A stretch of DNA of 61,588 nt, counting the filler, from Hausera hauseri (lineage: Eukaryota), in the NCBI GenBank assembly GCA_046269625.1. It is 9 parts of 9 records of this genome, joined end to end, with 100 filler letters (N's around TTAATTAATTAA, not from the genome) between each part and the next. Parts side by side here need not be neighbours in the genome. Positions count along the whole stretch, not along the records: positions 31,433 to 35,600 come from JBJURY010724547.1; 8 more parts are not named here. One strand, given 5' to 3'. A program made the translations under genes and the position numbers. Under the pieces are notes generated by a model. The model was not told the origin of the DNA and ran no database searches. It was given only the letters and a program-made list of their open reading frames with translations. Shown here piece after piece: positions 28,439-61,588 of the stretch; positions within the stretch are counted from its first letter, which is position 1; each line of letters opens with the position of its first letter.

Positions 28439-29290
28439 ATGGCTGTAGCTAGAGTGAAACCTGAGGCGGCGGATCTGAAAGAGGACTTCTTTACTGCAGC
28501 CAATGTCATCCGAGGTCCAGTTATTGGAAATGGAATGAGTGGAGAAGTCGTTGTTGCTGCTTCACGTAAAGATCCATCGATCAAACGAGCTGTAAAGATT
28601 TTGCCATTACTGACACCCGATGGTGGGATTAGAAGTAAGAAACTATTTGCTACTGAGATCGGGGCTATACAGGGACTGTCCCATCCTCATGTCATCAGAC
28701 ATGTCATGTCAGCGCGTTGTCCTGAATATCTGGTTATCTGTACACAGTACTATCCTAATGGGACACTGAGTTCCAAACTTGCAGACTTGGATCCAAGATT
28801 GTGTCCCACCTACTTTGTCCAGATGGCATGCGTAGTTCGCTATCTCAACGACAAACAGAAGACTGTACATAACGATATTAAGCCTGACAATATTTTCATC
28901 AAGGCCAATAATGACGCAGTTCTTGGGGACTTTGGATTATCCTTCTTCATACCCTCAAACGACGCATTGGTCCCCGCACGAGACTTGGGTGGAACTCCCA
29001 ACTTCTCTGCTCCGGAGAAATTCACCAGCACACACGTGTATCCTGATAAGTTGGATCCTTACTCTCTGGGTGTTTTACTCTGGTGTATGATGCTAAAGAG
29101 ACAGCCATCATTTAGTAGAATCTGCAGGTATATGAGAAATGAGGAGTTGTTGCGTGCTACCCCACAACCTTTACGATGGTGCGTCATGTCCCTATTAGAA
29201 CTGGACCCGGTCAAAAGATTAACTGCTACAGCGGTGCTGGAGAAGCTTTGTAGTCTTGGATTTATGAGCAACATTATCGACAGTCTGTGA
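28439..29290 (+). CDS. Intronless Ser/Thr protein kinase (kinase domain only, non-RD)
   Basis: 283 aa. GNGMSG glycine loop, RAVK lysine, alpha-C Glu (TEI), HNDIKPDN catalytic loop, DFG, GGTPNFSAPE, DPYSLG, DPVKR. All catalytic residues are intact. Confidence 0.95.
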   Translation: MAVARVKPEAADLKEDFFTAANVIRGPVIGNGMSGEVVVAASRKDPSIKRAVKILPLLTPDGGIRSKKLFATEIGAIQGLSHPHVIRHVMSARCPEYLVICTQYYPNGTLSSKLADLDPRLCPTYFVQMACVVRYLNDKQKTVHNDIKPDNIFIKANNDAVLGDFGLSFFIPSNDALVPARDLGGTPNFSAPEKFTSTHVYPDKLDPYSLGVLLWCMMLKRQPSFSRICRYMRNEELLRATPQPLRWCVMSLLELDPVKRLTATAVLEKLCSLGFMSNIIDSL

Positions 29291-31332: not shown

Positions 31333-31432
31333 NNNNNNNNNNNNNNNNNNNNNNNNNNNNNNNNNNNNNNNNNNNNTTAATTAATTAANNNNNNNNNNNN
31401 NNNNNNNNNNNNNNNNNNNNNNNNNNNNNNNN
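31333..31432. other. Artificial contig linker
   Basis: N-TTAATTAATTAA-N, 100 nt. Confidence 0.98.
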
Positions 31433-32630
31433 TTTCTCTTCTACATTGATCGGTACGTCTCTTTTTTCGCATTCGTAAGTTAGGAGAACTTCTCCAGTAA
31501 CTCATCCGAAAACACTTTCTTTCATTGGTATAATTAGCGATGCCAATTCTGGGTTGGCATAAATTAAGGCCAATTTGGTTCTCATGACTTCAGTATCTAA
31601 TCTGCAGTCATTTGTTATCATTTTGTGATATAGCTCTGCTATTCCTGTTTGTCCTTTGTAATAAAAATAGTCGTCTCGATTTTTGAGGTAATCCTCAATT
31701 CGTATGTCTTGCGTTTTCAAATCATATGTTTTCATGTTAATTTCGGTTTCTGCTACGAAAAATGCTTCATAATTTGTGGCATACATAACTACATCGCAAC
31801 GTGTTAACATATCGTTTCTAATAAACTTCAACCCATGCGTGTCCGATATCAACATCGTCGGTGTGGAATGTTCTATTACTTCTTCCCTTGATAGCGTATT
31901 AGTGTGTAATTTATTTGTATAGCGTTTTCCAGTTGTCTCGTTGAATTTTAACTCTTTAATTTTAATGAAGTTGCATTCTCTCTTGGAAGGTGGACTCCAT
32001 ACAACGACTGAACTTCGGAACGTACAAGCGCCGTCTTGTATGTGACATTTTTGGTTTTTAGTAAATAGTTTGGTAACACTATGAAACATCGCCTTTAGAG
32101 ATCTTAACTCGGTTTCATAAAAATCTACAACTACTATTCCTCTTTCCTTTCCCTTTCCAGTATCATATTCGGCTCCGACACAATAACCTGTGTGCATATT
32201 TAGTTTTCCGATTGCCACTTTGTAGGCTCTAATGATTTTTCCTTCTTGGGCTTCTAACTCCATGCCATCCCAAACTATTTTTCCGGTCAGCCGGGCTTTT
32301 AAACAGTGTTGCCTATCCACATTTATTGGGATTAATGGTGTGGTTGGTTTGATAATTGAAGAATGCCCGTGTATATTACCACAATGAAAAACGCTGCTAG
32401 ATCTCCGTATCATACATTCCGTTGCATCCATTGCAATTAATTCACGTTGTTGATATAATATGTACCCTTTTTCTATTGTCTCGAGCTTATGAAGTCTCGC
32501 ATCTTCGCATGTTTCTAAATCCATTAAGGAATATTTTTGACCTACCTTGAATTTATCGCAGTCGTATACAATAACTGCTCCCATCTACTTCACTAACATG
32601 ATTATTGTTAGCAGATTGATTAACCAATTC
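31433..32630 (-). pseudogene. Chuvirus-like (Jingchuvirales-type) envelope glycoprotein used as retroelement env; two in-frame stops, truncated by the contig end
   Basis: Signal-like WLINLLTIIMLVK* precedes MGAVIVYDC...YSLMDLETC...ECMIRRSSSVFHCGNIHGHSS...C...TG...GYCVGAEY...C...C...W...C...RCDVVMYATNY...YLKNRDDYFY...LYHKMITNDCRL...NPELAS...FG*VTGEVLLTYEC. The cysteine and motif spacing is that of chuviral G proteins. Confidence 0.82.
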
Positions 32631-32763
32631 GATCCGTTTTCTTTGTTCAAGGAGATGTTTCGCATCATGTCTTCTAATTTGTTAGTCCCTCTTCCATCTT
32701 CCTCTTTTTCGAATAATTTAGCCTATTTTATTTCTTTGGGTACCCTTCTTGCCGCTTTCATAG

Positions 32764-33744
32764 CTAACCCGATTGCCTTGTCAAACTCATTTTCTCGTAG
32801 GGATTAGTTTTTACCACCAAATATATCAAGACTTTCCTTAATTCTTCCGTCGTATTGTCTATCATAATTCTGTCAATTACTGTTTCGTTAGGGAGGTTGC
32901 CTTTAGATAATTTAAATCGTGGAATTTTCATGGTCCGTGCTATATTATATATTAGCCTTTCTTTCTCGGATAGTATGTCACCGTGTATTCCGGTATAATT
33001 AACTATCCTTATTAAATCTTTCATTAATTCAACTAATTTTTCATTATCCAAACTTGTAGTGGGTACTGATAGTTGTCTTAGTTCTCTAATTAGGTCTGCA
33101 TTATAGTCCACTTCTTTTATTTTTTTTGGTCTTCCGACTGGTCGTTTCGGTTTTACTGGTGATAAAGTTTCGCTTAAAGGAACTAAATTCTTCTCGTATT
33201 GCGGTTTGTCGTCATCCGTCTGTAAGTATTCAAAGTACATTGCGGCGTCCTGAATCTCCATGATTCTTCCAACGCAATGTTCTGTATACGCCTTCCTTAT
33301 GGCTTCGTCTTTGGTTTGCTCACTAGTAATTATTGCCATTATTTGATTCGCTTCAAATGGTATGATCCTTACGTCTATTAAGGATTCCAACTCGTCTAGT
33401 ATTCTACCTCTAAAATAGAGTTGGTAATTAATTCCTTCTTTACCATCCTTATCCATTATTCGTTGTCTTATATCCGAGACGGTGGTAAGAGTAGCACACT
33501 CAAATACCTCGTCATCCATCCATTCGGATGATACTTTCACCTTAATCTCCGCTTCCGGTTTGTTTTTCAATAGTTTAGCGTACTCTCTTATTAAGAGCTT
33601 GGGTACGGCGCTATATGCGGTATTTTCGCTGGATAGCTTAATCAAGGTTGGAATCAGTTTCCTTAACTTATCTTTGCTTATGTTTATTTTCAACATACTG
33701 CTTAGTTCCTTTTCAGCTAGTGTGGAATCAAGTAGCATCTGCAC
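32764..33744 (-). CDS. Retroelement polyprotein segment with a ubiquitin-like domain and an AT-hook
   Basis: Ubl at aa ~66-140 (IKVKV...TTVSDIRQRIMDKDG...YQLYFRGRILDELESLIDVRI; nt ~33325-33549). AT-hook KRPVGRPKK at nt 33121-33147. One frameshift separates this ORF from the env reading frame. Confidence 0.7.
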   Translation of the reverse strand: MQMLLDSTLAEKELSSMLKINISKDKLRKLIPTLIKLSSENTAYSAVPKLLIREYAKLLKNKPEAEIKVKVSSEWMDDEVFECATLTTVSDIRQRIMDKDGKEGINYQLYFRGRILDELESLIDVRIIPFEANQIMAIITSEQTKDEAIRKAYTEHCVGRIMEIQDAAMYFEYLQTDDDKPQYEKNLVPLSETLSPVKPKRPVGRPKKIKEVDYNADLIRELRQLSVPTTSLDNEKLVELMKDLIRIVNYTGIHGDILSEKERLIYNIARTMKIPRFKLSKGNLPNETVIDRIMIDNTTEELRKVLIYLVVKTNPYEKMSLTRQSG

Positions 33745-33989
33745 GTCAAATTCCGCCTTTTGCGTATCAGTAGGTGACTCATAAATTTGTATTGGAGTTC
33801 TTTGACTTTGCTCGGTTAGCCCTTGGAGATATTAGTTCCATTCGGCTTCATTACCTGAGTCAGGTAACTCATAGTTTATTATTGCCGTATGTCCGACCTG
33901 GACTCTTTCGCGTAATTATCTTATGTGAGGTTGCAATGTTTTCATTACGGATATTCTAAATCCGTCTCCATTTCCGCACGCTTGTTGAA

Positions 33990-35600
33990 TTAATGTTATC
34001 AATCGTCACATTTCTTCTGGTTGTATTAAGGCTTTCTCCCGATAACTAATTATTTCTGCGATTCTGTCGTTTTGCCATCTCTGTATAAATTCTGTTTTGT
34101 CGCTCGTTTCATATTCCGTAAGGAAATACTTGTTCTTGTAAACTTCTGTTTCTCTCAGTAAGTCGTTTAGCTCACGTTGCCTTTTCTCGGAGCGTAGCCG
34201 GGTCTCTTTTACCAGACGTATTCGATTTGTTAGTCGTTTGACTACTACTTCGTCACTTTCCGCCATTTCTGTTAACAATACGATTAATTTGTGCATTTGA
34301 TTCAATACTTCAGCGTCCGGATCTATTGCGTCTATTAGCCTGCCTATAAACTTCGCTTCGTCGGCCGTCAGCTAAAGATCCTTTTTAATCTCTGTTAATT
34401 CAGTGTGGCAGTGTAGGTCGAACCCCGGTGTGCATTCTACTGGATTCTGTAAATACTGTAGTGTCTGTGCCAAAGCAATCCGTTGGTCATTACATACTTC
34501 CATTGTTTCTATCTCCTGTACAGAGATCTCCTTTAGCGGTTTCTGTATTAGGTTCTGTATTCCTTCCCAACAGATATTTACTAAGGTTCGCCAAAGATCG
34601 CTTAGCTTGTTTCTTTTTTGTTGAAGTCCTTCCCCTCTATCATACTATATATCTCGGTCAGTGTTGTTTGGTCTTGATCTTCGCTCATAAATTTAAGTTC
34701 TCGAAGTGATTCGCAATTTTGCTTCATCTTCCATCGTACCGATGTCTAGTAGCATTTCCTCCAATTGGTGTCTCATTATAGGCTCAACTACGGCGAAATC
34801 TCTCCATCTTTCGTTTATTATCCCTGCTATGAAAGGTAACAAGTCTATCCACTTAATTGTTTAGATATTGCTGGTTTAGCTTATATTATTTTGACTAATG
34901 CCTCAAAAGCTTCTTTCAGTTCATGATCTCGTCCTCGTATAAATTCTATAATTTGTTTCATATAGTTGAATTCTTCTCTATACGCGTCTAACTCGAGAAG
35001 ACAAGCACATATTATTCTCTGTACTTCTGCCTTTTCAAGGTGAACTATACCGATCTTTAAGTCTTTAATTTTGGCTCGAATTCCATTTTCTCTTTTAATA
35101 CGTATTTTTAAATTTGGGTATTTCCGAGGTTTATCCTTTATTAAGCTGCACATTTCTATTAGAAAGGAAATATCGATATGGTCTATATTCAGTATCTCTA
35201 AGTCGGCATTAGTCAGTTCGTATACTGGCTTGTTATGAAGATAAGAGATTATCGCTTCTTCAGTCTCATACGTCACTCCTTCCAAATTACGCTTTACGCG
35301 TTTTAGTTTTGGGTTGTTCTTAACTGTGTCTAACAGCCCTTGCGCTTGATTAACCTGATCAAGAAGCAACTCATTTTTATTTTACCTATTTTCGTAAAAC
35401 CGATATCACTCGTTGTCTATAGTTCTAATTTATTTTGCCAACTTTTTATCAAGTCTTGCGGCATTTCTTGCAGTTCGTAAGGTGTATTTTCTTCCTTTCT
35501 TTGAGAACCGGATCTAAGCTTTCTATATAGCTTTTCTATAAATTGTTGTTCTTTTCCGGAGATATCCAACTGTTTGCTCATCTGCTGGAGTTTTTGTAAG
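33990..35600 (-). pseudogene. Unknown helical region 'X' of the LTR-element polyprotein, paralogue 1
   Basis: Fragments SKQLDISGKEQQFIEKLY; ORF 34881-35369; IQNLIQKPLKEI...EVC...DLHCHTEL; IDAIDPD; ORF 34006-34305. All are colinear homologues of 57610-59180. Confidence 0.7.
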
Positions 35601-35700
35601 NNNNNNNNNNNNNNNNNNNNNNNNNNNNNNNNNNNNNNNNNNNNTTAATTAATTAANNNNNNNNNNNNNNNNNNNNNNNNNNNNNNNNNNNNNNNNNNNN
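35601..35700. other. Artificial contig linker
   Basis: N-TTAATTAATTAA-N, 100 nt. Confidence 0.98.
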
Positions 35701-41762: not shown

Positions 41763-44668
41763 CATACACACGCACAACATCACAATACCTTCATTTGTTC
41801 ATCACAAAACATCTACCCTTTAAAAACTTCTACTTCCATCTTAACAGTATTCTTCAAACCACTGGCAACTCATCTCTGTCTACGCGTTTGCGATATGCTT
41901 TCTCAATTCATTTTCATCACACCTCGGCTTCTTGGTGGCTGTGATCTCAGTCTCGAAACTTCTGAACTCAAAAAGCCACACCCAATACCAATCATCTATC
42001 TTTCCAAATCCGTTGTCAATGCGTTGAATATTTCACCCACAACCAAAATTCACCTCGCACTTGACTAGGTTTTCACGCCCGATGGCTCAGCGTCCATAAT
42101 CTCACTGATTCATTTCTCAAAACCAAAAACCTTCTCGTCTATTTACCTTCCTCCCTAAAGTCATGCCTTTCAAACTTGTCTGAGATCTTCTCTGAAGCTG
42201 ATCCCTACAAAGCTCTCTACGCTTCAGTACTTAACCCCATCGAACAATCTATAGACTTAATAATCCAAAAATATTTCAATGACAATACCTAGGTCAGAAT
42301 CAAGCCTTACAACTTTCTTCGAACGTCTTTATCTAAGCTCAGCACGTTAGGCGTAACACAATCCAACAATTCCGACCTTTTGAGACATACTTTCTTTATC
42401 TCTTGGCCAAGGAAATCCGTGCTCTTTTAACTGTTGTTGAGGACCATGCGACCCTGGACACACTAGCACAGCTCGCCAATTAAAGCTTCGAAATACTGCA
42501 CAAGTAGTCACATACGACAATAGCTGCAACATTAGCAGAACCATAAATTCAATCCCATCTATAAACATTAATACTTGAAACTCAATTACAATCGTTCCAT
42601 GCAGAAAATCTGCAATTAAAAAAAGCTATATCCGCAGTAACAGACAGCTATGTATGGCATCAATCTCGCCCTGAGAGACGCCGATTTCGTAACAACTCAA
42701 CCAATAACCCAAACAATTCAGCTGCACGGAGACAAATGTTTTATTTTCACACAGAATTTAAACAGTCAACTCAAAAAGTGTTGCATAGGTTTTGATAGAA
42801 ACTTTGCAACATCAGACAACATATGTATCTGTCACAATAAATACCAAGACAGTGCTTGACACTGCTTGTCCGGCTGTAAATTCGAGACGCAATTTTCTAA
42901 ATTACAACCTTCCTCATCATCAAAAAGCATATTGCCGACAGAACTTCCGACAAATCCTTTCCAAGGCTCATCTCCATAAAAAACGGCCGAAATACCTCCT
43001 TCGTTGTCTTCACTCTTCACGCAATGTTTCACATCCACTTAAATCAAATATAAATTTTCTCATAGACACGGATGCTGCAGTATCACTACTGCCCAAATCG
43101 TTTGCAATCACAAATCGTCTTCAATCTCTCAACCACTATGCACTGCCAATGGACTACCGTTACGTACCATTGTCACAATTCATTTGTCTTTCACTCTACA
43201 ACACTTTCCCCTAGTCTTTCACTGGACTTTTGTGATAGCAAACGTGCAGTTACCCATTCTACGCCGGGGCTTTCTTTCACGTTACCATCTTCTAGTAGAC
43301 TGTAAAAACGTTGTCTATTGCACAGTTTTAATCAATTTTTTATAACAAATAACTCTTCATTTGAGAGAAATTGGCCTCCAGTGTTTGCGAAGCCTATAAT
43401 TAAATCTGTACTAAAATCATTTAATATAAATAATAATAAAATCGTACATAACAAAATTGTGGACGTTGATAAGTATGAAATTGTCTCCTCCACCGACATA
43501 ACTCCACAACCTACCTCAGCTCCTGATCAACATTCGTCCATACTACCATCATCCTTCAGCCTATTATCAGCGGACTTGCAAACATTTATAACTTTTCAAT
43601 GTTCAAGAATTCTTAAGAAAGCCCCACAACTCAAGCCTTCTTCCAACACGTTTCATTTATAGTTACCTCCTACCAACGATCAACACACCAGAAAGTGTTA
43701 CCTCTTTCACCACGTTACATAAAAGCAGTTGCTCACGAATTCCGAACTATAGAAAACACCAGCATTATAAGAGGTTCAAAATTATCTTGGGCCTCACCCT
43801 TACATGTCGTGCTCAAGAAAGATAGAACTTTCAGGTCTTCTGGCTACTATCGAAAGTTAAACACCATCACGATCATATCCACTTCCACTTATTAACGATA
43901 TACTGCCCAGACTTCATGGTACTTTCATCTTTTCATATATTGATTACCATAAGGCATATCATAAAATATCCGTCGTTCCTGCTGACATACCAAAAAAGGC
44001 TGTCATAACATATTTCGGCTTTTTACAGTATGTTTGCATACCTTTTGGTCTTCACATTGCCTCACTTACCAAAAGCACATTAACACTATTCTTTCTGGCC
44101 TAGATTTCGCCTTCCGATACATATACGACACATTTATTGCTTCGTCGTCTCCCAAACACTATTCTGAATATCTGTACATATTTTTCCAACGCTTACACAA
44201 AAACAACCTTGGAGTCAACTTCGTCAAATGCTCTTTCTCTCAATACAAGATCAACTTTCTTGGACATGTTATAATCCAATTTGGCCATCACCGCAGCAAG
44301 ACCGCATTACTGAGTTCAACAACATTCATTTTCCATGAACATCCACAGAAATGCTTTCCTTTCTCGGAACTCTTCACTTCGTGCACAAGAATGTGCAATA
44401 CTGTTCCACATTTACTGAACTATTCGCTTCACCAGCTCCGGTAAAAAGAAGCAGCTCATTCACCGGACTACTGACCTAGTAAACTCGTTTGAACATCTTA
44501 AAAAACTTAAAAACTGCCGAAATCCTGTAATATCTTGATTCAAACTCAACTCTTTCTTACAATCGATGTACCACTGCATCAGGTGCAGTACTTTATATAT
44601 TCAAAGACGGATTCCATCAGCCAGTTGAATTTTTTTCACAAAAATTTACAAAAACCGAATAACGGTTT

Positions 44669-45876
44669 TAGGGCTTATTGCTTTATGAGAGTCCCTGATC
44701 CCATTTAACAACATTGAAACCAAAAAACAGTAAGAAAAAACGAACGTAAAAAATTGGTAGAAAACAACAGCATAAGGGTGATAACGTTTATTCACATTAC
44801 AATCGTCGTCTGCTGACGACTGAGACTCTTCCATTGGAGGATAGAAACGGTGCCGTCCTGAGAAGTCGACGAAAGGGAATTGGTTAGTCATCCGTGCCGG
44901 GGCTGTACGCCCTGACCCGCCGTGAGCCGGAGATTCTTTGGTCCGGAATCAACTGGCTCTCAGAGAGAACCAGTGATTCGAACATCCGGTCTGCAGCCGC
45001 CATCAGCCTTATAAAGACTGGTAAGAAGGCAGAGGAATCGAACAACCGTCGGTGACCTCCATCGGCGTAAAACCGTCGAAGATGTCCGTTTGGGACGCAG
45101 TACGGGTCGTTCTTGGGCAGCCTGTTGAGGTGCCGCACGAATCTGCTCCGTTGCAGCAGCTTTCACACCGCCTGATAATCCAAATACGAGCAACACAAAG
45201 CTTGACGGTCCCGAATGCGATGTCGCTTTCTACTAGAGACGGTGTCTCGCCGGGCTGTGTGTCTCCGATCTTCGGATCGGGTTTGTTCCGTTGAAGCGGT
45301 ATGCCTGTCGGTTCCATTCTCCGCTCAGGCGTGTGTAGGTCGGGGTACCTTGGGAATGCGGTACCCCGTAAACGGAACGGTCTTCTTTTCGTTCGCCGTG
45401 ATATCTGGTTGGTCTGGCGCATCGCCTAGGTGGGCCTTGAAGGCTTGTCTGACGATAGGTTCGCCGGGTTTCTATATCTTGAATGTCGACATCTGGCCCT
45501 TTTCGAACGCTTTCGGTGCTATTGGAATTTTTTTATACTTTGAATATAAGTGATCTTCTTAAAACTGGATTCAAACAAAATGGATTTGAATGTACAGATT
45601 TCGATTGTCAATTGCTTTATTATTACAAGTGCTGATCACTTCAGCACTCGTAATTCCAGTTTTTTATTTGTTTGTTTCGTAGGCGGATTCTTGTTTGTTT
45701 GGGATGAATACGTGATTTGCTTTTGATTTTACTTTTGACAAGGTTTGTGATATTAAGCGAATCCGTGGTTTTGTTACTACTATTTGGTATGTTTAAAATT
45801 TCAAGGGGAATAAATTTTTAAATTCGTGATTTGTTTATTTTTTGTACTTATTTTTTGTTTGTAAAGCAAAGCTTTA
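44669..45876. mobile_element. 1.2-kb nested insertion in the gypsy RNase H; probable non-autonomous DNA transposon
   Basis: Splits ...KTE / QRYSTFD. Near-duplicated target AACGGTTT (44661-44668) versus AACGGTAT (45878-45885). Imperfect TIRs TAGGGCTTATTGCTTTA and TAAAGCAAAGCTTTA. Confidence 0.65.
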
Positions 45877-47894
45877 CAACGGTATTCCACCTTCGACAAA
45901 AAGTTGCTTGTTATGATCCTAGCCGTAATGCATTCTAAACACATTCTGCTTTCACGCACTTTCACCATCCAAACGGATCATAAACCTTTGCTTCACATAC
46001 TCACTATGAAGTCTCCATCTCCACGTCAGGAGAGACAAATATAATATATCTCAACGTTTGCTGTTAACATAAAACATAATTCAGGTATTTACAACTAAGT
46101 AGCCAATTTCTTATCGAGTTCCGTCGACTCTATCAGTTTTGCGCCTATTTTTGACAACAAGACACTCCGCCGGAAAAAGCCAAATGATCCCATTCTCTCC
46201 GCCTTCAAATTCCATAAAATCGTTGATGGCGTAGCTTTAGACACCACCAATCCTTGATTCACTAAAATTATTCTTTCACCGACGCTGCTAAAAACAGCAA
46301 TCAACAACGTTCATTCGCTGCATCGCCCAGGATCCAAAGCTACGTATCGACTTTTTAAACGCAAAGTCACATGGCCATCAATAAAATCAGATGTGCAGAA
46401 TTAGTTTAGGGAGCGTGCGGCATGACAGAAGTTTAATGTAGCCAAACACATCAAGCCGCCTCTTTATCATTTTCCCTGCACATCACAATTTGACACTATT
46501 CACACTGATATAGTTGGTCCACTACAACCAGACAGTGACAATCAGTTTATCCTCACCATGATGGACTAAACCTTCAGATGGCCAGAAACCGTTCCACTCC
46601 TGTTCTGTTCAACATAGACAGTGTCCCTTGGTCCATGGTGGTTGGATACGGCTGAGTGGTCCGTTTCCGCCTAATCGGACAGATAGCCGGATCCGAGTTT
46701 ACTCTTCGGCTGGTCTTGTAGCGGAACAATGTCCATTGAACAAAATCACAAATAAATCTACACCAATAAATTTAACCTTTGCAAACAAATCCGGTCAGAT
46801 CTTGCCCATATGCATTGTACCGACTGTCCTTACATTGTTCCTAACAACTAGATGGACTTCGTAGCATGAAAAATTTATAACAGTGTATAGAAAGTTCTTT
46901 ACTTAAATCAGACCATAATTTTGATTCTACCCCTCACATAGTGGGGCAGCTGTTACATAATCAAAATCAGTAGTTACGATATATTTCCGTCCCAAATTGC
47001 TTTCACAATTTTGTGTAGAATATTTTGCTATCTTTGTTATTATGTTACTGTCGCTTATTTTGTTTATTTGATTATGTATAAATTTATTTGTATCCCACAA
47101 ATCCGTTTTCTCTTTTACATAACAATTATTTTTGATTTAATCGATTTTGTACAGACTGATTCGTGTCCAAAAAACCCGTTTTCTCCTTTTGTACGATGTA
47201 ATATTTTTAACAGATAATTAAAGTAAATCGTGTACAAAATTATTCGACATCATATGTACAAGTTTTATTAAGAAGTGCGCAGTGATGTACTATTGCCGTC
47301 TGGTTTCATGCGCTGCCCATTTTACCCCATCGTACTGATATAAAATATGTGACACGACTATATAGAAAATATGTTTATGCCGCAATATTAAAAAATTTTA
47401 AACATTAAAGATATTTTGCATTAGAAATTTAGTAATGACTTCATATCTAATATAATACTATAAGGAAAAGTGGTAACATTGTGCATTTGTTCACCGTTTC
47501 ACTCATTCCTGCTATCTATAGAGCTTGCTAAGTCAGTGGAGAAATAAAGTATTGTACATCAAGATGGCATGACAGTTGCAAAACAATGTAGTGTTTATTA
47601 AATGGTCGTGGCAGATACGAGGAAAGAAACAGGTAGTGACAACTGCACTGATATGGCTGGTTGATCAGAAAACATTAGGTCCATTGGTTGGTAATCATAG
47701 ATTACATTTTGAAAGTTTGAGCGCCTGCTATCGAAAGCTTCAAGACATAATCCGCGAAATACTTGGATTCATTAAAACACCTTTTAATGAACAGTATTAA
47801 AGCACATTATCATCCCCATAAGATGGCATACTGAAAAGTTTCGTGAATGTGCGTAATTAATTGCACTTCCTCTGCAAGGCTAATTATTGGAAAA

Positions 47895-47994: not shown

Positions 47995-50900
47995 TAAGAC
48001 TAAGACTAAGACTAAGACTAAGACTAAGACTAAGACTAAAAGACAAAGACTAAGACTAAGACTAAGACTAACACTAAGAGTAAGAGTAAGAGTAAGACTA
48101 AGACTAAGACTAAGAGTAAGACTAAGACTAAGTCTAAGATTAAGATTAAGACAAAGACTAAGACTAAGACTAAGAGAAAGACTAAGACTAAGATTAAGAC
48201 TAAGACTAAGACAAAGACAAAGACAAAGATAAAGACTAAGAGTAAGAGTAAGAGTAAGACTAAGACTAAGACTAAGACTAAGATTAAGACTAAGACTAAG
48301 ACTAAGACTAAGACTAAAAGACAAAGACTAAGACTAAGACTAAAACTAAGATTAAAACTTAGACTAAGATTATAAGAATAAGACTAAGACTAAGACGAAG
48401 ACAAAAACTAAGACTAAGACTTAGACTAAGACTAAGACAGACTAAGACTAAGACTAAGACTAAGACGAAGACAAAAACTAAGACTTAGACTAAGACTAAG
48501 ACTAAGACTAAGACTAAGACTAAGACTAAGACTAAGAATAATACTTAGACTAAGACTAAGACTAAGACTAAGACTAAGACTAAGACTAAGACCAAGACTA
48601 AGATTAAGACTAAGACAAAGACTAAGACTAATACTAAGAATAAGACTAAGACTAAGACTAAGACTAAGACTAAGACTAAGACTAAGACTAAGACTTAGAA
48701 TAAGACTAAGACTAAGACTAAGACTAAGATTAAGATTAAGAATAAGACAAAGACAAAGACAAAGATAAAGACTAAGAGTAAGAGTAAGAGTATAAGTAAG
48801 AGTAAGACTAAGACTAAGACTAAGACTAAGACTAAAAGACAGACTAAGACTAAGACCAAGACTAAGACTAAGACTAAGAATAAGACTAAGACTAAGACTA
48901 AGACTAAGATTAAGACTAAGATTAAGATTTATACTAAGACAATGACTAAGATTAAGTCTAAAACTAAGACTAAGATTGAGACTATGACTAAGACTAAGAA
49001 TAAGACAAAGATTAAGAATAAGACTAAGGTTAGAATAAGACTAAGACTAAGACTAAGACTAAAAGAATAAGACTAAGACTAAGACTAATACTAAGACTAA
49101 GATTAAGACTAAGACAAAGACTAAGACTAAGGCTAAGAGAAAGATTAAGACTAAGATTAAGACTAAGACTAAGACAAAGACAAAGACAAAGATAAAGACT
49201 AAGAGTAAGAGTAAGACTAAGACTAAGACTAAGACTAAGACTAAGACTAAGACTAAGACTAAAAGACAAAGACTAAGACTAAGACTAAGACTAAGATTAA
49301 GACTTAGACTAAGATTATAAGATTAAGACTAATACTAAGACTAAGACTATAACGAAGACAAAAACTAAGACTAAGACTTAGACTAAGACTAAGACAGACT
49401 AAGACTAAGACTAAGACAAAGACGAAGACAAAAATTAAGACTTAGACTAAGACTAAGACTAAGACTAAGACTAAGACTAAGACTAAGACTAAGACTAAGA
49501 ATAAGACTTAGACTAAGAGTAAGAGTAAGACTAAGACTAAGACTAAGACTAAGATTAAGACTAAGACAAAGACTAAGACTAATACTAAGAATAAGACTAA
49601 GACTAAGACTAATACTAAGACTAAGACTAAGACTTAGATTAAGACTAAGACTAAGACTAAGACTAAGAGTAAGACTAAGATTAAGACAAAGACAAAGACA
49701 AAGATAAAGACTAAGAGTAAGAGTAAGTGTAAGACTAAGACTAAGACTAAGACTAAGATTAAGACTTAGACTAAGAATAAGAATAATACCAAAATTAAGA
49801 ATAAGAGTAAGACTAAGACTAAGACTAAATTAAGACTAAGACAAAGATTAAGACTAACCCTTTGTCTTAGTCTTAATCTGAGTCTTAATCTTAGTCTTAG
49901 TCTTAGTCTTAATCTTAGTCTTAGTCTAAGTCTTAGTATTGGTCTTAGTCTTAGTCTTAGTCTTAGTATTAGTCATAGTCAGTCTAATAGTAAGACTAAG
50001 ACAAAGACTAAGATTAAGACTAAGACAAAGACAAAGACTATGACTAAGACTAAGAATAAGACTAAGATTAAGATTAAGAATAAGACTAAGACTAAGACTA
50101 AGACTAAGAATTAGACTAAGACTAAGACTAAGACTAAGACAAAGACAAAGTCAAAGACTAAGACAAAGACTAAGAATAAGGCTAAGACTAAGACTAAGAT
50201 TAAGACTAAGACTAAGATTTAGACTAAGAAAAAGACTAAGATTAGGATTAAAACTAAGACTAAGATTGAGACTAAGAATAAGAATAAGACTAAGACTAAG
50301 ACTAAGAATAAGACTAAAAGTATAAGACTAAGGATAATACTAAGACTAAGATTAAGACTAAGACTAAGAGTAAGACTAAGGCTAAGATGAAGACAAAGAC
50401 TAAGATTATGACTAAAACTAAGAATAAATTGAGTCTAAGATTAAGACTAAGACTAAAACTAAGACTAAGAATAAGACAAAAAGAATAAGGCTAAGACTAA
50501 TACTAAAACTAAGATTAAGACTAAGATTAAGACTAAGATTAAGATTTAGACTAAGACAAAGACTAAGATTGAGACTAAAACTAAGACTAAGATTGAGACT
50601 AAGACTAAGACTAAGACTCAGACTTCGACTAAGACTAAGACTAACAATAAGACTAAGATTAAGACTATGACTAAAACAAAGACAAAGACAAAAGCAAAGA
50701 CTAAGACTAAGACTAAGACAAAGACTAACATTAAGACTAAAACTAAGACTAAGATTTAGACTAATATTAAGACTAAGACTAAGATTAAGACTAAGACTAA
50801 AACTAAGACGAAGACTAAGACTAAGACTAAAAATAAGACTAAGAGAAAGACTACGACTAAGACTAAGACTAAGACTAAGACTAAGGCTAAGATTAAGACT

Positions 50901-53900
50901 AAGATTAAAAGAGAAAGACTAAGACTAAGACTAAGACTAAGGCTAAGACTAACACTAAGACTTAGTCTAAGACTAAGACTAAGACTAAGACTAAGAGTAA
51001 GACTAAGAAAAAGACAAAGGCAAAGATAAAGACTAAGTCTAAAAGTAAGAGTAAGAGAAAGACTAAGACTAAGTCTAAGACTAAGACTAAGACTAAGACT
51101 AAGACTAAAAGACAGACTAAGACTAAGAACAAGACTAAGACTAAGAGTAAGACTAAGACTAAGACTAAGACTAAGAATAAGACTAAGACTAAGACTTAGA
51201 CTAAGAATAAGACTAATACCAAAACTAAGAATAAGAGTAAGACTAAGTCTAAGACTAAATTAAGAATAAGACAAAGACTAAGACTGAGACTTTGTCTTAG
51301 TCTTAATCTTAGTCGTAGTCTTAGTCTTAGTCTTAGTCTTTGCATTTGTCTTTGTCTTTGTTTTAGTCTTAGTCTTAATCTTAGTCTTATTGTTAGTCTT
51401 AGTCTTATTCCAAGTCTGAGTCTTAGTCTTAGTCTTAGTCTAAGTCTAAGTATTAGACTTGGTCTTAATCTTAGTATTAATCTTAGTCTTAATCTTATTC
51501 TTAGTCTTATTCTTAGTCGTAGTCTTAATCTTTTGTCTTAATCTTAGTCTTATTCTTAGCCCTAGTATTAGCCTTATTCTTAGTCTAATAGTAAGACTGA
51601 GACAAAGACTAAGATTAAGACTAAGACAAAGACAAAGACTAAGACTAAGAATAAGATTAAGACTAAGGCTAAGATTAAGATTAAGACAAAGATTTAGACT
51701 AAGACAAAGACTAAGCTTAAGACTAAAACTAAGACTAAGATTGAGACTAAGACTAAGACTAAGATTGAGACTAAGACTAAGACTAAGACTAGGAATAAGA
51801 CTAAGACTAAGAATAAGACTAAGTCTAAGATTAAAATTAAGAGTAAGACTAAGACAGAATAAGACTAAGACTAAGACTAATACTAAGACTAATATTAAGA
51901 CAAAGACAAAGACTAAGACTAAGACTAAGAGAACGACTAAGACTAAGACTAAGACAAAGACAAAGACAAAGATAAAGGCTAAGAGAAAGAGTAAGACTAA
52001 GACTAAGACTAAGATTAAGACTAAGACTAAGACTAAGACTAAGACTAAAAGAAAAGGCTAAGACTAAGAGTAAGATTAAGATTAAGACTAAGACTAAGAT
52101 TATAAGACTAAGACTAAGACTAAGTCTAAGACTAAGACTAAGACTAAGACGAAGACAAAAACTAAGTCTAAGACTTAGACTACGACTAAGACAGACTAAG
52201 ACTAAGACTAAGAATAAGACGAAGACAAAATCTAAGATTAAGACTAAGACTAAGATTAAGACTAAGTCTAAGACTAAGACTAAGACTAAGACCAAGACTA
52301 AGACTAAGATTTAGATTAAGACTAAGACTAAGTCTAAGACTAAGACTAAGACTAAGACTAAGACTAAGACTGAGACAAAGATTAAGATTAAGACAAAGAG
52401 TAAGACTAAGACTAAGAATAAGACTAAGACTAAAACTAAGACTAAGACTAAGACTAAGACTAAGACTTAGACTAAGACTAAGACTAAGACTAAGATTAAC
52501 ATTAAGACAAAGACAAAGACAAAGAAAAAGACTAAGAGTAAGAGTAAGAGTAAGACTAAGACTAAGATTAAGACTAAGACTAAGACTAAGACTAAGACTT
52601 AGACTAAGAATAAGACTAATACCAAAACTAAGAATAAGAGTAAGACTAAGACTAAGACTAAATTAAGACTAAGACAAAGACTAAGACTAAGCCTTTGTCT
52701 TACTCTTAATCTTAGTCTTAGTCTTAGTCGTAGTCTTCGTCGTTGCTTTTGTCTTTGTCTTTGTTTTAGTCTTAGTCTTAATCTTAGTCTTATTGTTAGT
52801 CTTAGTCTTAGTCCAAGTCTGAGTCTTAGTCTTAGTCTTAGTCTTAGTCTAAGTCTTAGACTTGGTCTTAGTCTTAGTATTAGTCTTAGTCTTACTCTTA
52901 TTCTTAGTCTTATTCTTAGTCTTAGTCTTAGTCTTTTGTCTTAAACTTAGTCTTATTCTTAGTCCTAGTATTAGTCTTAGTCTTAGTCTAATAGTAAGAC
53001 GAAGACAAAGACTAAGATTAAGACTAAGACAAAGACAAAGACTAAGACTAAGAATAAGACTAAGACTAAGAATAAGACTAAGACTAAGATTAAAATTAAG
53101 AGTAAGACTAAGACAGAATAAGACTAAGACTAAGAATAAGACTAAGGCTAAGATTAAAACTAAGACTAAGACTAATTCAGAATAAAACTAAGACTAAGGC
53201 TAATACTAAGGCTAATATTAAGACTAAGACAAAGACTAAGACTAAGACTAAGAGAACGACTAAGACTAAGACAAAGACAAAGACAAAGACAAAGATAAAG
53301 AATAAGAGAAAGAGTAAGACTAAGACTAAGACTAAGACTAAGACTAAGACTCAGACTAAGACTAAAAGACAAAGACTAAGTCTAAGAGTAAGACTAAAAT
53401 TAAGACTAAGACTAAGATTATAAGATTAAGACTAAGACAAAGACTAAAACTAAGACTAAGACTAAGACCAAGACAAAAACTAAGACTAAGATTTAGACTA
53501 AGACTAAGACAGACTAAGACTAAGACTAAGAATAAGACGAAGTCAGAAATTAAAATTAAGACTAAGACTAAGACTAAGACTAAGACTAAGACTAAGACTA
53601 AGACTAAGACTAAGACCAAGACTAAGACTAATATTTAGACTAAGACTAAGACTTAGTCTAAGACTAAGTCTAAGACTAAGACTAAGACTAAGACTAAGAC
53701 AAAGATTAAGATTAAGACAAAGACTAAGACTAAGACTAAGAATAAGACTAAGACTAATACTAAGACTAAGACTAAGACTAAGACTTAGACTAAGACTAAG
53801 ACTAAGACTAAGTCTAAGTCTAAGATTAAGATTAAGACAAAGACAAAGACAAAGATAAAGACTAAGAGTAAGAGTAAGACTAAGACGAAGACTAAGACTA

Positions 53901-56900
53901 AGACGAAGACTAAGACTTAGACTAAGAATAAGACTAATACCAAAACTAAGAATAAGAGTAAGACTAAGACTAAGACTATATTAAGATTCAGAATAAGACC
54001 ACGACTAAGACTAAGATTAAGACTAAGACTAAGATTAAGACTAAGACGAAGACATAGACTAAGAATAAGACTAATTCCAAAACTAAGAATAAGACTAAGA
54101 CTAAGACTATATTAAGACTAAGACAACGACTAAGACTAAGCCTTTGTCTTAATCTTAATCTTAGTCTTAGTCTTAGACTTATTCTTAGTCTTAGTCTTTG
54201 CATTTGTCTTTGTCTTTGTCTTAGTCTTAGTCTTTATCTTAGTCTTATTGTTAGTCTTAGTCTTAGTCCTAGTCTGAGTCTTAGTCTTAGACTTAGTCTA
54301 AGTCTTATTCTTGGTCTTAGTCTTAGTCCTAGTCTTAATCTTAGTCTTAGTCTTAGTCTTATTCTTAGTCTTAGTCTTAGTCTTTTGTCTTAATCTTAGT
54401 CTTAGTCTTAGACATAGTATCAGTCTTAATCTTAGTCTAATGGTAAGACTAAGACAAAGACTAAGATTAAGACTAAGAAAAAGACAAAGCCTATGACTAA
54501 GACTAAGAATAAGACTGAGACTAAGACTGAGAATAAGACTAAGACTAAGACTAAGACTAAGATTAAGACTAAGACTAAAAGACAAAGACTAAGACTAAGA
54601 CTAAGACTAAGATTAAGATTTAGACTAAGATTATAAGATTAAGACTAAGACTAAGACTAAGACTGACTAAGACGAAGACAAAAACTAAGACTAAGACATA
54701 GACTAAGACTAAGACAAAGTAAGATTAAGACTAAGACGAAGACAAAAACTTAGACTAAGACTAAGACTAAGATTAAGACTAAGATTAAGACTAATACTAA
54801 TACTAAGACTTAGACTAAGACTAAGATTAAGACTAAGACTAAGCCTAAAACTAAGACTAAAACTAAGATTAAGACTAAGACAAAGACTAAGACTAAGACT
54901 CATACTAAGAATAAGACTAAGGCTAAGCCTAAGACTAAGACTAAGACTAAGACTAAGACTTAGATTAAGATTAAGACTAAGACTAAGAATAAGACTAAGA
55001 CTAAGATTAAGATTAAGACAAAGACAAAGACAAAGATAAAGACTAAGAGTAAGAGTAAGAGTAAGAATAAGACTAAGACTAAGACTAAGGCAAAGACTAA
55101 GACTAAAAGACAGACTAAGACTAAGACCAAGACTAAGACTAAGAGTAAGACTAAGATTAATACTTAGACTAAGAATAAGACTAATACCAAAACTAAGAAT
55201 AAGAGTAAGACTAAGACTAAGACTAAATTAAGTCTAAGACAAAGACTAAGACTAAGCCTTTGTCTTAGTCTTAATCTTAGTCTTAGTCTTAGTCTTAGAC
55301 TTAGTCTTAGTCTTAGTCTTAGTCTTTGCTTTTGTCTTTGTCTTTGTATTAGTCTTAATCTTAATCTTAATCATATTGTTAGTCTTAGTCTTAGTCCTAG
55401 TCTGAGTCTTAGTCTTAGTCTTAGTCTTAATCTAAGTCTTAGACTTTGTCTTAGTCTTAGTATTAGTATTAGTCTTAGTCTTGTTCTTAGTCTTATTCTT
55501 AGACTTAGTCTTAGTCTTTTGTCTTAATCTTAGTCTTAGTCTTAGTTCTAGTATTAGTCTTAGTCTTAGTCTAATAGTAAGACTAAGACAAAGACTAAGA
55601 TTAAGACTAAGACAAAGACGAAGACTATGACTAAGACTAAGAATAAGACTAAGACTAAGGCTAAGAATAATACTAAGATTAAGACTAAGACTTAGACTAA
55701 GACTAAGACTAAGACTAAGACTAAGGCTAATTCTAAAACTAAGACTAAGAGTAAGAGTAAGACTAAGACTAAGACTAAGACTAAGACTAAGACTAAAAGA
55801 CAAAGACTAAGACTAAAAGACAAAGACTAAGACTAAGCGTAAGACTAAGATTAAGTCTAAGACTAAGATTATAAGATTAAGACTACGACTAAGTCTAAGA
55901 CTAAGACTAAGACTAAGACGAAGACAAAAACTAAGACTAAGACTTAGACTAAGATTAAGAAAAACTAAAACTAAGAATAAGACGAAGACAAAAATTAAGA
56001 CTAAGATTTAGACTAAGAATAAGACTAAGACTAAGACTAAGACTAAGACTATGACTAAGATTTAGACTAAGACTAAGAGGAAGACTAAGACTAAGACTAA
56101 GACTAAGAATAAGACTAAGATTAAGTCTAAGACAAAGACTAAGAATAAATCTAATAATAAGACTAAGACTAAGACTAAGACTAAGAATAAGACTAAGATT
56201 TAGACTAAGACTAAGACTAAGACTAAGACTAAGATTAAGATTAAGACAAAGACAAAGACAAAGATGAAGACTAAGAGTAAGAGTAAGACTAAGAATAAGA
56301 CTAAGACTAAGACTAAGACTAAGACTAAAAGACAGACTAAGACTAAGTCCAAGAGTAAGACTAAGATTGAGACTAAGACTAAGACTAAGACTAAGACTTA
56401 GACTAAGAATAAGACTAATACCAAAATTAAGAATAAGAGTAAGACTAAGACTAAGACTATATTAAGACTAAGACAAAGACTAAGACTAAGCCTTTGTCTT
56501 AGTCTTAATCTTAGTCTTAGTCTTAGTCTTAGTCTTTGCCTTTTTCTTTGTCTTTGTCTTAGTCTTAGTCTCCATCTTAGTCTTATTGTTAGGCTTAGTC
56601 TTAGTCCTAGTCTGAGTCTTAGTCTTAGTCTTTGTCTTAGTCTTATTCTTAGTCTTAGTTTTAGTCTTTTGTCTAAATCTTAGTCTTAGTCTTAGACCTA
56701 GTATTAGTCTTAATCTTAATCTAATAGTAAGACTAACACAGACTAAGATTAAGACTAAGACAAAGACAAAGGCTATGACTAAGACTAAGAATAAGACTAA
56801 GACTAAGACTAAGAATAAGACTAAGACTAAGACTAAGATTAAGACTTAGACTAAGACTAAGACTAAGACTAAGACTAAGACTAAGACTAATTCTAAGACT

Positions 56901-57609: not shown

Positions 57610-59860
57610 TGTTAGTTCAGAGGCTACGTCTCTCTGCCATCTTTGCACAAACTGCGACTTGTCGACTTTCTCCGCTTCAGTGAGAGAGTATTTATTTATA
57701 TAGTTCTCGAACTCCTTCAGTAATTTGTCTAGTCTTATGGCTCTCTGCTTGGTTTCACTGCATGTTTCTTCGACTTGGCCTATCTGAAGCAACAATTGTT
57801 TTATCTTCTCATCGCTAATTTCTGCCATTTCTACCATTAGACGTGCTAATTCATACATTTCACTAATAGTTTTGAGTCCGGATCTGTAGCATCTAATAAC
57901 TTTTTTGCACACCTGGCTACTTCAACGCTAAGATGGTGGTAGTTTCTGATCATTATCAGTTCGGTATGACATCTCTGGTCCGTTCCGATCGTCCAGTTTT
58001 GTAGGTCGTGTAAAAATTTTATTGCCTCTTCTATCGCCGATCGGTGCATCGGACAAACGTCCAACGTTCTGAGATTTTGAATCAAGATCTCTTTGATAGG
58101 TTTTGCAGTTAAGTGCTGAATTTTTTCCAGGCGGATATTTCTTAATCTCGGATAGACGTTACAAGTCATTTTCCGCTTCTCTGTAAAGTTTGTTTCTTCG
58201 ATTATTTTATATATCTTCCAATATCGTCGTTTGTTGTTTTCTTTTCATAAAGTTCAATTGGTATAATGCATTAAATTGTGTCCTAGTATCCACTTCCGCT
58301 TTCATTGTATCCAGATTTCGTGCATCATCTTCTAATTGCATCCTTACTGTAGGCTCACTTTCTGGGAACTTTTTTATACGGTCTTCTACTAATTTTCTCA
58401 GTCTCGTTATTACCCGACACTATTCGTCTATCTGGTTAGCGGTATTCAGCTTCGGCAATATTGTCTTGTCCAGCATTTTATATGCGTTTTCTAACTCGTC
58501 GTCCGGGCCTTTTATGAAACTAATGCTTAGTTGAATTCATCCTTATACTCATCAATTTCAAGGATACAGGCCTTAATTATGTTCTGTGTCTCGTCATTGT
58601 CCAACTGCATGATTCTATTTATTAAACTATATATCTGTGACCTTTTTTCGTTTTCGATTTTAATACAATTTTCCAGACTTGTATATTGTTTTGCTGCGGT
58701 GGAAGCAATTTTTATTATCTCCATTAATGGTGGGATATCTAGCGAGCTTATACCCAACAATTCCAAATCAATTTCGTTTCGTTCCTTGACCGGTTTTTGT
58801 CTGAGCCTCTCCACCATTTTGAATCTAATTTCGTTCATGACGCGCTACACGTTACAAGTTACCCTTTTAGTTTCAGATTGGCTTCTAGTATGGTCAGTAA
58901 TGCTTGGGCTTTATTTATTCTTGCTTCGACATTCTTTGAATGTTTATCCCACGCTTCGGAAAATTTAATTCCACTCTGTATCTAAGTTTTTAATTCGTAT
59001 TTCCATTTCTCTAACGTTTCTGGTGACACTTCCTCAGGTTGCCCTAGGTCTAAAGCTTCGTTCAGTTTTTCCTCACTATATAATTTCATTTTCTTGTATA
59101 ATCTTTATATAAATTGCTGCTCTTTACCAGAAATGTCTACTTGTTTGTTCATCTCTTTAAGTTTCTCTAAGTTCTGTTGCAATACGTCTGGGTTGAGACA
59201 ATTAATTCACATTCTCTTTAATTCATCAGAATTTTTCCATGAACGCCTGATTTTTCACTGTTTCTGATCAACCCTCTCACTTTGCTCTGTCTCTTATTCA
59301 CTAGTAGGTAGTGGACATATCTCATTAATTTCATTCACAGATTTTGTTAACTCTTCTATGCCAACAGGTGTAACTAACCAAATTTCTGGGGTATCCAAGG
59401 TGAACTCTACATCGCTTTCTAGAGCGATTTCAGTTTCTTTTGCTCTGTCAGACTTTTCATTATTCATCGGGGATTGTGAACGATCTTTACGTTTCCGCTT
59501 TAATGACGGACTGCGGCCTCTATTCTTTGTAATTTTGAGTATTAGTGGTTCTATAATTTTTTTCCTCGTCAACCTCTATAGTTTTGTCCATTTTTTCTAC
59601 CACATATTCCGGTTCTGCATCTAAATCCACTTCATTCGGAGTTTGGGACTTTTCGGGTTTCTTTATCTCTCTATTAGATGCAGGAACATGCTTTTTCCGT
59701 GCCATATTGGTGAGCCTTGGTTGGGCTATAGAGTGTTTATATTCTGTTTCTGGCTTGCGAAGGCCATTGTATATTTCTAGTAAGCGTAATTTGTGCTCAT
59801 ACTCATTCCTGGCCATTAAGACTTTGGGATCGTTAGTATCAGGTTGAGCCTTCAAGAAAC
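57610..59860 (-). pseudogene. Unknown region 'X' of the LTR-element polyprotein, paralogue 2, directly downstream of the Gag zinc knuckle
   Basis: ORFs 59520-59855, 59294-59572 (basic patch RSPSLKRKRK), NKQVDISGKEQQFI*RLY, 58527-58838, 57846-58169 (KPIKEI...DVC...DQRCHTEL...LDATDPD) and 57610-57912. Colinear with 33990-35600. Confidence 0.7.
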
Positions 59861-59984
59861 GTCACAAATCTTGTATTTCGATAATTATACCCGTGTCTTT
59901 ACGAATGCCATAAATTGTTTCTAGATTTTCGTTCCTAATTACATTAGTTTTGCTAGGCTCAAAAAATGAAACACTTTGCGGATT

Positions 59985-61189
59985 TGGACAGGACCTTGCT
60001 ACGTGTCCTTCTTGTCCGCAGGTGTAACAAATTAGGTTACCATTTCTACCGACCCTTTGTCGTCAATCTTCATTTATTGGAAATTTCGATCTTCTCGGAT
60101 TTCTATTAAAATTCTGGTACGACGAAATTTGTCTAGTATCTCCATTCTGATGATTTTCATAACTTCGATTATCGCTGTGCCGGTTTCCATTGTTAAAATT
60201 TCTGGGGCCGTCCGAACGTCTATCCGTACTATAGTTTGGTCTACTAGATGAGCTATTACGGTCATTATCAAAATTCCGGTTACCATACCGATTACTTCTA
60301 TAATCATTGTTATTATTCTGGTTTCTATTGCCATAATTTCTGTTAAATCGCCTATCATTTCTCCCGTGATTATCATTCCGATTTCTATCATTTCGATCAT
60401 TATTTCTGTCGTTTTTGTCTTTACCCTTAACATATCTATCCAGTGCCATTTCCAAGTCTTGGGCCAACTGCAAGGTTTTATAAAAATTCTCAGGTCTGGC
60501 TAAAATCAACTGTTTCACTATATCTCTAGACCAGATGCCATTTATTAAGTGCGTCATCATCATAACGTCCAAAACAGGAGGGTTTGCCTTCTCTGCGGCT
60601 TCCCGCTCTGCGTCGCTTTTAGCCTTAGCTATATTAGCTAGTCTTAAAGTACTCACATAGCTTTTCGCACGTTTCTTTAATACAAATTCAAACTGGGTTA
60701 TCGACTCACCCTTCTGTTGCACTCTATTCTGGAAGGCCATGAGGCTTTGTTGTGGAATTACTGTCGGAAATAATTTTCAATTTAAGGCTCCTACTAGGAA
60801 GGATCGCGTTTCTTTTCATCGTCAGTGAGTTCACTATAGGTATCAGCGGCCAAATTCTTCAAATATAGTGACAAGCGTTTAATCATCACATTAGCTGCGA
60901 GTTCAGCACCTTCTGCGTGCAACTCATAAGTTCTTAAGAATTTATTAAGTCCGTCCGGTTCTCCATCATACGCCGGCAGATTCAGGGAACCGAATGTAAA
61001 AATGTCCAGCTTCTGCGCTACTGCTTGATTTTCGACCATGTTTTCTACGTTTATTAAATTTTGCTTAATTAACTTACGGGTTCTAATTCTCTTATGAGGA
61101 ACTTTAAATTCTATAGGCTGTCCAGAAGCGTCTAAATCAGTAAGTTCAATGTTAACTAAATTCGTCTCAGATAAGGTACGTCTACTCAA
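59985..61189 (-). pseudogene. Ty3/gypsy-type Gag (capsid, R/N-rich linker, CCHC zinc knuckle); frameshifted
   Basis: LPAYDGEPDGLNKFLRTYE...RLSLYLKNLAADTY; RVQQKGESITQF...HLINGI..DIVKQL...TLQLAQDLE; knuckle CYTCGQEGHVARSC at 59988-60029. Confidence 0.88.
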
Positions 61190-61460
61190 CGTTTTATCCT
61201 GTCTATAAACTTTGTTGCGCGTTTCGCGTAGGTTAATATTCTCTTTGCCGTTTAGAATTACGTTTAAGTTATCGTCTGACTTATATCTATTAATATTCGT
61301 CCTTATTTCAATAGTATGTCGTTAAATTTGGCTGAGAGTTTCTTATAAATCCAGCAATTTAAGTTCACAACGATTCTTTAATCGATTATTTGATGTGGCG
61401 GAGCTGATCGCCAATATGTCGTTACTTTTTACTAAGAGTCAATTCTAGCAAGTGCAAACT

Positions 61461-61478
61461 GTCCTGCTAGGGTCGCCA
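61461..61478 (-). promoter_or_regulatory. Primer-binding site, tRNA-Arg-like
   Basis: Minus strand TGGCGACCCTAGCAGGAC, 3 nt after the LTR terminal ...TTAACA. It is complementary to a tRNA 3' end GTCCTGCTAGGGTCGCCA, which resembles tRNA-Arg(UCG) ends (TCCTG..xGGTCGCCA). Confidence 0.75.
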
Positions 61479-61481
61479 AAA

Positions 61482-61588
61482 TGTTAATAGTTGAAGGTTG
61501 GCCCTATTCAACACCCAACTATAACAATATTTAAACTCAATTTAAACAATAATTTATAAGCACATAAGTCCTAACGTTCTCGTTAGAA
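61482..61588 (-). repeat. 3' end (U5) of the 5' LTR of the gag-X-env element, truncated by the window edge
   Basis: Ends in ...CTATTAACA immediately before TTT and the PBS. Confidence 0.7.

Follow-up and report, generated by a model that had tools for sequence, protein, structure and literature searches.

A decayed fragment of a probably Burro-like gypsy element from Hausera hauseri carries the front part of a class III fusion glycoprotein behind a predicted internal signal peptide

The window, i.e. the whole 61,588-nucleotide stretch of Hausera hauseri DNA analysed here, consists of ten contigs as counted in our analysis, linked by N/TTAATTAATTAA/N spacers, and the element under study occupies a contig of only 4.2 kb between the spacers at 31333-31432 and 35601-35700. 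Its features are read from the minus strand and are collected in Table 1. The peptide quoted in the initial annotation was found exactly as given in the minus-strand env frame, together with the two TAG stops, and this frame overlaps the last ~37 nt of an upstream ORF of 355 aa, termed the Ubl ORF here. The G-like start is at 32575 within an env-frame ORF of 31502-32584, and the G frame stays open to 31505, followed by a stop and then by the contig end. Because the contig ends at 31433, the glycoprotein (G) breaks off at profile position ~362 of 653; outside the contig lie gag, the C-terminus of G, pol and the LTRs. At least 14 breaks (11 stops and three frame changes on the cheapest path) are present along the contig, which is decayed throughout, and this copy makes none of the products proposed below.

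Table 1 Features of the element contig and of a related contig in the window, in window coordinates.
Feature	Position	Strand	Basis
Internal decayed fragment of a high-copy, probably Burro-like gypsy element (X - Ubl - signal - G)	31433..35600	-	Contig end at both limits
N-terminal ~60% of a class III fusion glycoprotein (chuvirus G / herpes gB type), as modelled	31433..32575	-	PF24664, AlphaFold, Foldseek, VIA-align
Internal signal peptide as predicted (h- and c-region); the second stop lies within it	32576..32626	-	Hydropathy 2.78
Second in-frame stop, private to this copy	32585..32587	-	Copy comparison
First in-frame stop, private to this copy	32723..32725	-	Copy comparison
Stretch shared by the Ubl ORF and the env frame, with this copy's frame change	32764..32803	-	Indel near 32800 when compared with other copies
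Open stretch of 355 aa with a helical module, the Ubl, an AT-hook-like motif and a helical tail of low confidence	32764..33831	-	Model; match to P0005
AT-hook-like GRP motif	33121..33147	-	Motif scan; also in 5 of 9 relatives scanned
Ubiquitin/SUMO-fold domain, ~residues 93-170 of the 355-aa ORF	33322..33555	-	Model and Foldseek
Upstream region X, coding but with stops and frame changes in it	33834..35600	-	36-42% aa identity to the 3' part of 57610..61588
Relative, diverged and decayed, with a gypsy-type gag, an Asn/Arg-rich linker and a CCHC knuckle, X following within ~1 kb	57610..61588	-	zf-CCHC, P0005, X homology

The G ORF is matched by the Pfam family PF24664 (Monjiviricetes_fusion) with an E value of 3e-25 over profile positions 21-362 of 653. 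An AlphaFold model computed from a 74-row alignment reached a mean pLDDT of 90, and the best Foldseek match was a chuviral G in the set of predicted viral structures (E 7e-22, TMq 0.67) and herpes gB in that of solved structures (E 1e-10). VIA-align superposed the model on herpes gB over 289 residues (Z 9.8, rmsd 7.4) and ranked other gB and proteins of thogotoviruses and rhabdoviruses next. Judged from this model, the window G is the front part of a class III fusogen, truncated by the contig end. The initial annotation had described G as chuvirus-like and had named the lack of any structural or HMM match to chuviral G as the outcome that would speak against it; matches of both types were obtained, and the description is upheld by the Pfam score together with the fold matches to chuviral G and herpes gB.

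The ubiquitin-like (Ubl) domain upstream of G gave an E value of 0.006 with Pfam ubiquitin, below the cut-off, while Foldseek retrieved SUMO1 and ubiquitin with TMt values of 0.81-0.86; pLDDT is 63-82 over this domain, and the rest of the 355-aa ORF is modelled at low confidence (mean 43). The GRP motif of the same ORF is presumably an AT-hook. No Pfam match above the cut-off was obtained for the X region, where neither gag nor RT was found. Over the 3 kb preceding G, the Pfam search likewise gave no RT, no integrase was matched upstream of G, where Ubl and X lie, and neither N nor L was matched in the three upstream ORFs scanned. A BCL2-like module was not detected in this copy with a four-sequence profile, 79 of 500 shuffles scoring as high, and the region searched is split by the frame change and modelled with a pLDDT below 45; among relatives, P0001 gave a weak whole-protein Pfam Bcl-2 match and a shared motif was seen in four of nine.

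Homology ties this upstream region to gag. In a comparison with 17 selected proteins, the Ubl ORF aligned to residues 394-590 of P0005 (E 8e-7), a single ORF in the order Gag-CCHC-Ubl region-G that ends inside G, and the X region shares 36-42% aa identity with the 3' part of the related contig at 57610-61588. On that contig, the gag matches the N-terminus of P0005 (E 6e-9), zf-CCHC was found with an E value of 1e-7, and there is no room for pol between gag and X.

A full HMMER scan with G returned 111 proteins at E <=0.001, the best of them 22-31% identical, and many of these relatives have a length of 1,100-3,200 aa, G lying centrally. When longer relatives were sought by word-index searches, none came up for either G or the Ubl ORF, and metagenome and viral contigs likewise yielded no relatives in locus searches with the G protein. 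In a quick, unrooted maximum-likelihood tree of the G stretch, for which 68 of 74 rows were kept and six with a cover below 70% were removed, the window G falls into a 20-row clade with 19 retroelement proteins (SH-aLRT 96), to which it is only 22-31% identical. Two named chuviral G (P0057 and P0076) fall outside this clade, as does the integrase-tail-fused P0100, and the phylogeny called for by the initial annotation accordingly groups the window G with retroelement proteins and not with named chuviral G; a recent capture of G from chuviruses gains no support from it. These results bear on a different origin of the locus, namely a chuvirus insertion of non-retroviral type or a BEL/Pao element like Anakin, with G beside unrelated ORFs by chance. 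Such insertions are common in arthropods and the best predicted-structure matches of G are themselves chuviral G; however, the position of the window G in the tree, outside the clades of P0057, P0076 and P0100, and the homology of the upstream DNA, which is with gag-linked relatives and with none of N, L and integrase, argue against it. Such an origin is largely refuted by the match of the Ubl ORF to P0005 and by the G tree, and we regard it as extremely improbable.

Other copies of the element were examined in one public run (X1; share of words 0.32), which is possibly the window's own source. In this run, 9,516 contigs align to the 4.2 kb of the element contig, 551 of them at 99% identity or more, 1,580 at 95-99%, 3,698 at 90-95% and 3,687 below 90%, a spread indicating a high-copy family with a wide range of ages. 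At the first stop, 3,828 of 3,874 depth (99%; 52 contigs) differs at the codon and has no stop, and the same applies to 337 of 350 depth (96%; 25 contigs) at the second. The stops are thus not conserved across copies, as the initial annotation had considered they might be if its proposal were wrong; absent from nearly all other-copy depth, they reflect the decay of this copy. The frame change near 32800 probably reflects decay of this copy too, on thinner evidence than that for the stops: an indel was found there in six contigs (139 of 470 depth), ten more contigs have loose ends at the site, and gaps occur in all three of the listed pieces that cross it, the listing holding 8 of 415 pieces. 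Among the contigs listed from this run, none spans the whole Ubl-signal-G junction. At the family level, env is in frame with the upstream gag-side region, as evidenced by the unshared stops and, more weakly, by the indel at the frame change.

The signal-like hydrophobic stretch noted before G lies at ~32623-32591, where the best 11-residue Kyte-Doolittle mean is 2.78. A comparable stretch precedes G in the same register in all 15 relatives examined, against a background of one in 194 upstream 30-aa blocks that are as hydrophobic, the threshold being that of the weakest positive, chosen after the fact. The predicted cut was placed, on the basis of hydropathy, three residues ahead of a Y/F-D-C motif; the hydrophobic stretch ends 3-10 residues before it in 15 of 15 relatives, which have a small residue at -1 (14/15) and a small or aliphatic residue at -3 (15/15). 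The window has Ala at -1 and, unlike the relatives, Met at -3. A second hydrophobic segment, 525-570 aa past the G start, is present in 11 of 12 long relatives (P0005 ends inside G) and appears to mark the anchor of G. The signal-peptide-like character of the junction, as initially annotated, is therefore matched by a conserved hydrophobic stretch with a -3/-1 pattern, and from its hydropathy we infer that signal peptidase may cleave there.

The same stretch could instead be an ordinary N-terminal signal, if Env were made separately, or also separately, from a spliced or subgenomic RNA or from Met codons ~30 residues before the cut. Two in-frame Met codons at 32668-32663 would give a 31-residue leader, most of the depth at the frame-change site has no indel, and env is expressed separately in other gypsy elements. 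However, the first stop lies upstream of these Met codons and is yet missing from 99% of the depth, the second of the Met codons is variable among copies, and the relatives keep one ORF through the Ubl-signal-G region. Separate Env could coexist with a polyprotein route, and we consider it unlikely as the explanation of this junction.

The relatives of the clade also indicate what lies on either side of G. In 13 of the 19, G comes after the same signal-like stretch and is preceded by 139-1,360 in-frame residues in a single ORF, and six start at or inside G (0-14 residues before it); a Pfam Gag or CCHC mark stands before G in four, and some rows outside the clade have long upstream parts as well. 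A retropepsin follows G in ten of the 19, five of which also have RT, and all ten clade relatives whose ORF runs at least 400 aa past the compared G stretch have a retropepsin, one of them weak (E 0.002). One relative reaches 4,844 aa. Because clade relatives run G in a long ORF into retropepsin and RT, the ancestor of the family was likely a Gag-X-Ubl-Env-Pol polyprotein of about 4,000-5,000 aa, as far as can be read from these sequences. The single Gag-X-Env polyprotein initially proposed thus stands in part: its in-frame fusion to the Ubl region agrees with the unshared stops and with the single-ORF relatives, but its ending after G does not. Likewise, the guessed length of 2,000+ aa fits Gag-X-Env, which comes to ~2,200 aa by adding the parts, and falls short of the 4,000-5,000 aa that would result with pol behind.

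A polyprotein that did end after G, as in a non-autonomous or split element without pol, would be processed by host signal peptidase alone. Pol is absent from both contigs of the family in the window, and two clade relatives, P0001 and P0014, end soon after the G anchor without a protease. The element contig, however, ends inside G, which makes the missing pol uninformative, and a family with 9,516 aligned contigs needs RT and integrase from somewhere. The retropepsin in ten out of ten clade relatives with a long downstream ORF weighs against this layout, which is quite improbable in our view, and leaves the claim that no element-encoded protease would be needed without support.

Taken together, it is highly probable that the contig is a decayed internal fragment of a high-copy gypsy LTR element, likely Burro-like and with a triclad flatworm as host, and that this element likely made its class III fusogen in frame within one Gag-X-Ubl-Env-Pol polyprotein, from which host signal peptidase would free it by a cut at the internal signal. 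A triclad host is indicated indirectly by the DnaJA ORF of another, unlinked contig, which has its best listed match in Dugesia japonica. The parts of this reading with direct support are the identity and fold of the fusogen, the Ubl fold, the stops that most copies do not share, and the single ORF of the relatives with its downstream protease and RT. According to standard signal-peptide biology, the ribosome would make Gag-X-Ubl in the cytosol, after which G would enter the ER lumen by way of the internal signal, which host signal peptidase would cut. The G anchor would then stop transfer, so that PR-RT-RH-IN would be returned to the cytosol as the tail of Env, and Gag would be matured, and Pol set free, by the retropepsin that the element encodes. 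Since Gag maturation and Pol release would need this retropepsin, the protease-free step of the initial annotation fails. An example of such processing is the core-E1 junction of HCV, a case named in PMC5402940.

Because the signal cut would part Gag from Pol, Pol would likely reach the particle via Env. Extended to Gag-Env-Pol elements in general, this leads to a tentative proposal that we hold to be possible, though open to considerable doubt: the signal cut would exclude Gag-Pol packaging, Pol would be carried into the particle on the fusogen, as its cytoplasmic tail, membrane budding would be obligatory even for copying within the cell, Gag, Env and Pol would be present at 1:1:1, the topology would be of flavivirus or alphavirus style, and the elements would be enveloped planarian viruses. 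The conserved signal-peptide junction provides a testable prediction for polyprotein processing and Pol packaging in Gag-Env-Pol elements, and it bears on whether planarians carry enveloped retroelement particles. In the literature searched, we found no account of signal-peptidase processing, Pol packaging or a Pol-as-Env-tail topology in such elements, which the figures of PMC13524379 and PMC6431247, Sacco 2022 and Grohme 2018 may cover.

The one-polyprotein layout with env is itself not new, having been published in 2019 and surveyed in 2026. Burro and GYPSM1 are giant gypsy-like LTR retrotransposons of dugesiid planarians, and Burro in the strict sense exceeds 25-30 kb, with long LTRs, an ORF1 of ~4,900-5,100 aa and MATH, BIR and ankyrin cargo; its env follows Ubl and BCL2 modules and sits in frame with gag before it and pol behind it (PMC6431247, 2019). 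Like the window element, Burro has a Ubi2/SUMO-like domain upstream of a mononegaviral-type env, decayed copies with stops and frameshifts (reported for Dugesia japonica) and, as is likely for the window element, a planarian host, but it has between Ubl and env a BCL2-like module, which was not detected in the window copy; the section describing Burro does not mention an internal signal peptide (PMC6431247). Burro is also named in PMC11410931, with nothing further in the passage concerned. Chary and Hayashi (2026) describe GAG-ENV-POL gB-type errantiviruses from Platyhelminthes, Nematoda and Bryozoa, e.g. Smed_errantivirus_1-6, which share with the window family a class III gB-type env, placed before pol as is likely for the window family too, and have an env ectodomain flanked by a signal peptide and an anchor (PMC13524379). 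The env rows given there for Schmidtea errantiviruses (Platyhelminthes C1a) are, by eye, similar to the window G in their motifs and in how their cysteines are spaced, whereas those elements are intact and the window element is a decayed fragment (PMC13524379).

More distant systems share single aspects. Atlas virus, a belpaovirus of Ancylostoma ceylanicum, likewise encodes one polyprotein with an RNA-virus-type fusogen and has predicted membrane segments and cut sites like those of its donor virus, but it differs in its Gag-Pol-Env order, class II phlebovirus-type Gn/Gc and BEL/Pao lineage (PMC9094657). Anakin, a mosquito BEL/Pao element, carries the same Pfam G family on an LTR element (PMC7642597; PMC10084718), but on a BEL/Pao backbone and with G after pol (PMC7642597); its G belongs to another clade in our tree. 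Troyka elements, described as being without env (PMC12440569), were rejected as a match. The window element is probably a new, decayed member of the Burro-like GAG-ENV-POL group, whose G is at most 31% identical to any library protein; given that the layout is already published, the window copy adds a diverged family and little else.

Several further observations were made on the relatives and on the remaining contigs. P0003 (HBK71150.1), a 2,627-aa Gag-side/Env/Pol polyprotein, carries the database label of a hypothetical protein from a Flavobacteriaceae MAG and is likely animal DNA in a bacterial bin. Further features were noted at the C-termini of P0002, P0003, P0010 and P0112 and in the interior of P0006 and P0112: these polyproteins have, behind the integrase, an additional region bounded by hydrophobic segments and resembling a second membrane protein, and in some of them there are ankyrin and C2H2 motifs and at least three retropepsin repeats. 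A decayed gypsy-type remnant with RT, RNase H and integrase lies at 43659-46599 on the plus strand; its contig (39801-47894) was considered as the source of the family's pol and rejected, being unlinked to the element and matched only weakly by the relatives' pol (24-47% over short pieces). A DDE_3 transposase fragment, below the Pfam cut-off, was found at 9216-9605 (minus strand) in a repeat common to the next contig, and the stretch at 47995-57509 is an unusual satellite with a 6-nt unit, TAAGAC (first 1.5 kb checked), and many inverted blocks. The contig at 26112-31332 has the same 77 nt at both ends, a sign that this 5.1-kb unit may be tandem or circular in the assembly graph, and contains an intronless protein kinase ORF at 28439-29290. 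An intronless DnaJA ORF at 3100-4353 (minus strand), on a contig unlinked to the element, is 61% identical to Dugesia japonica HSP40, the best of the 120 matches listed (563 bits, the next reaching 528).
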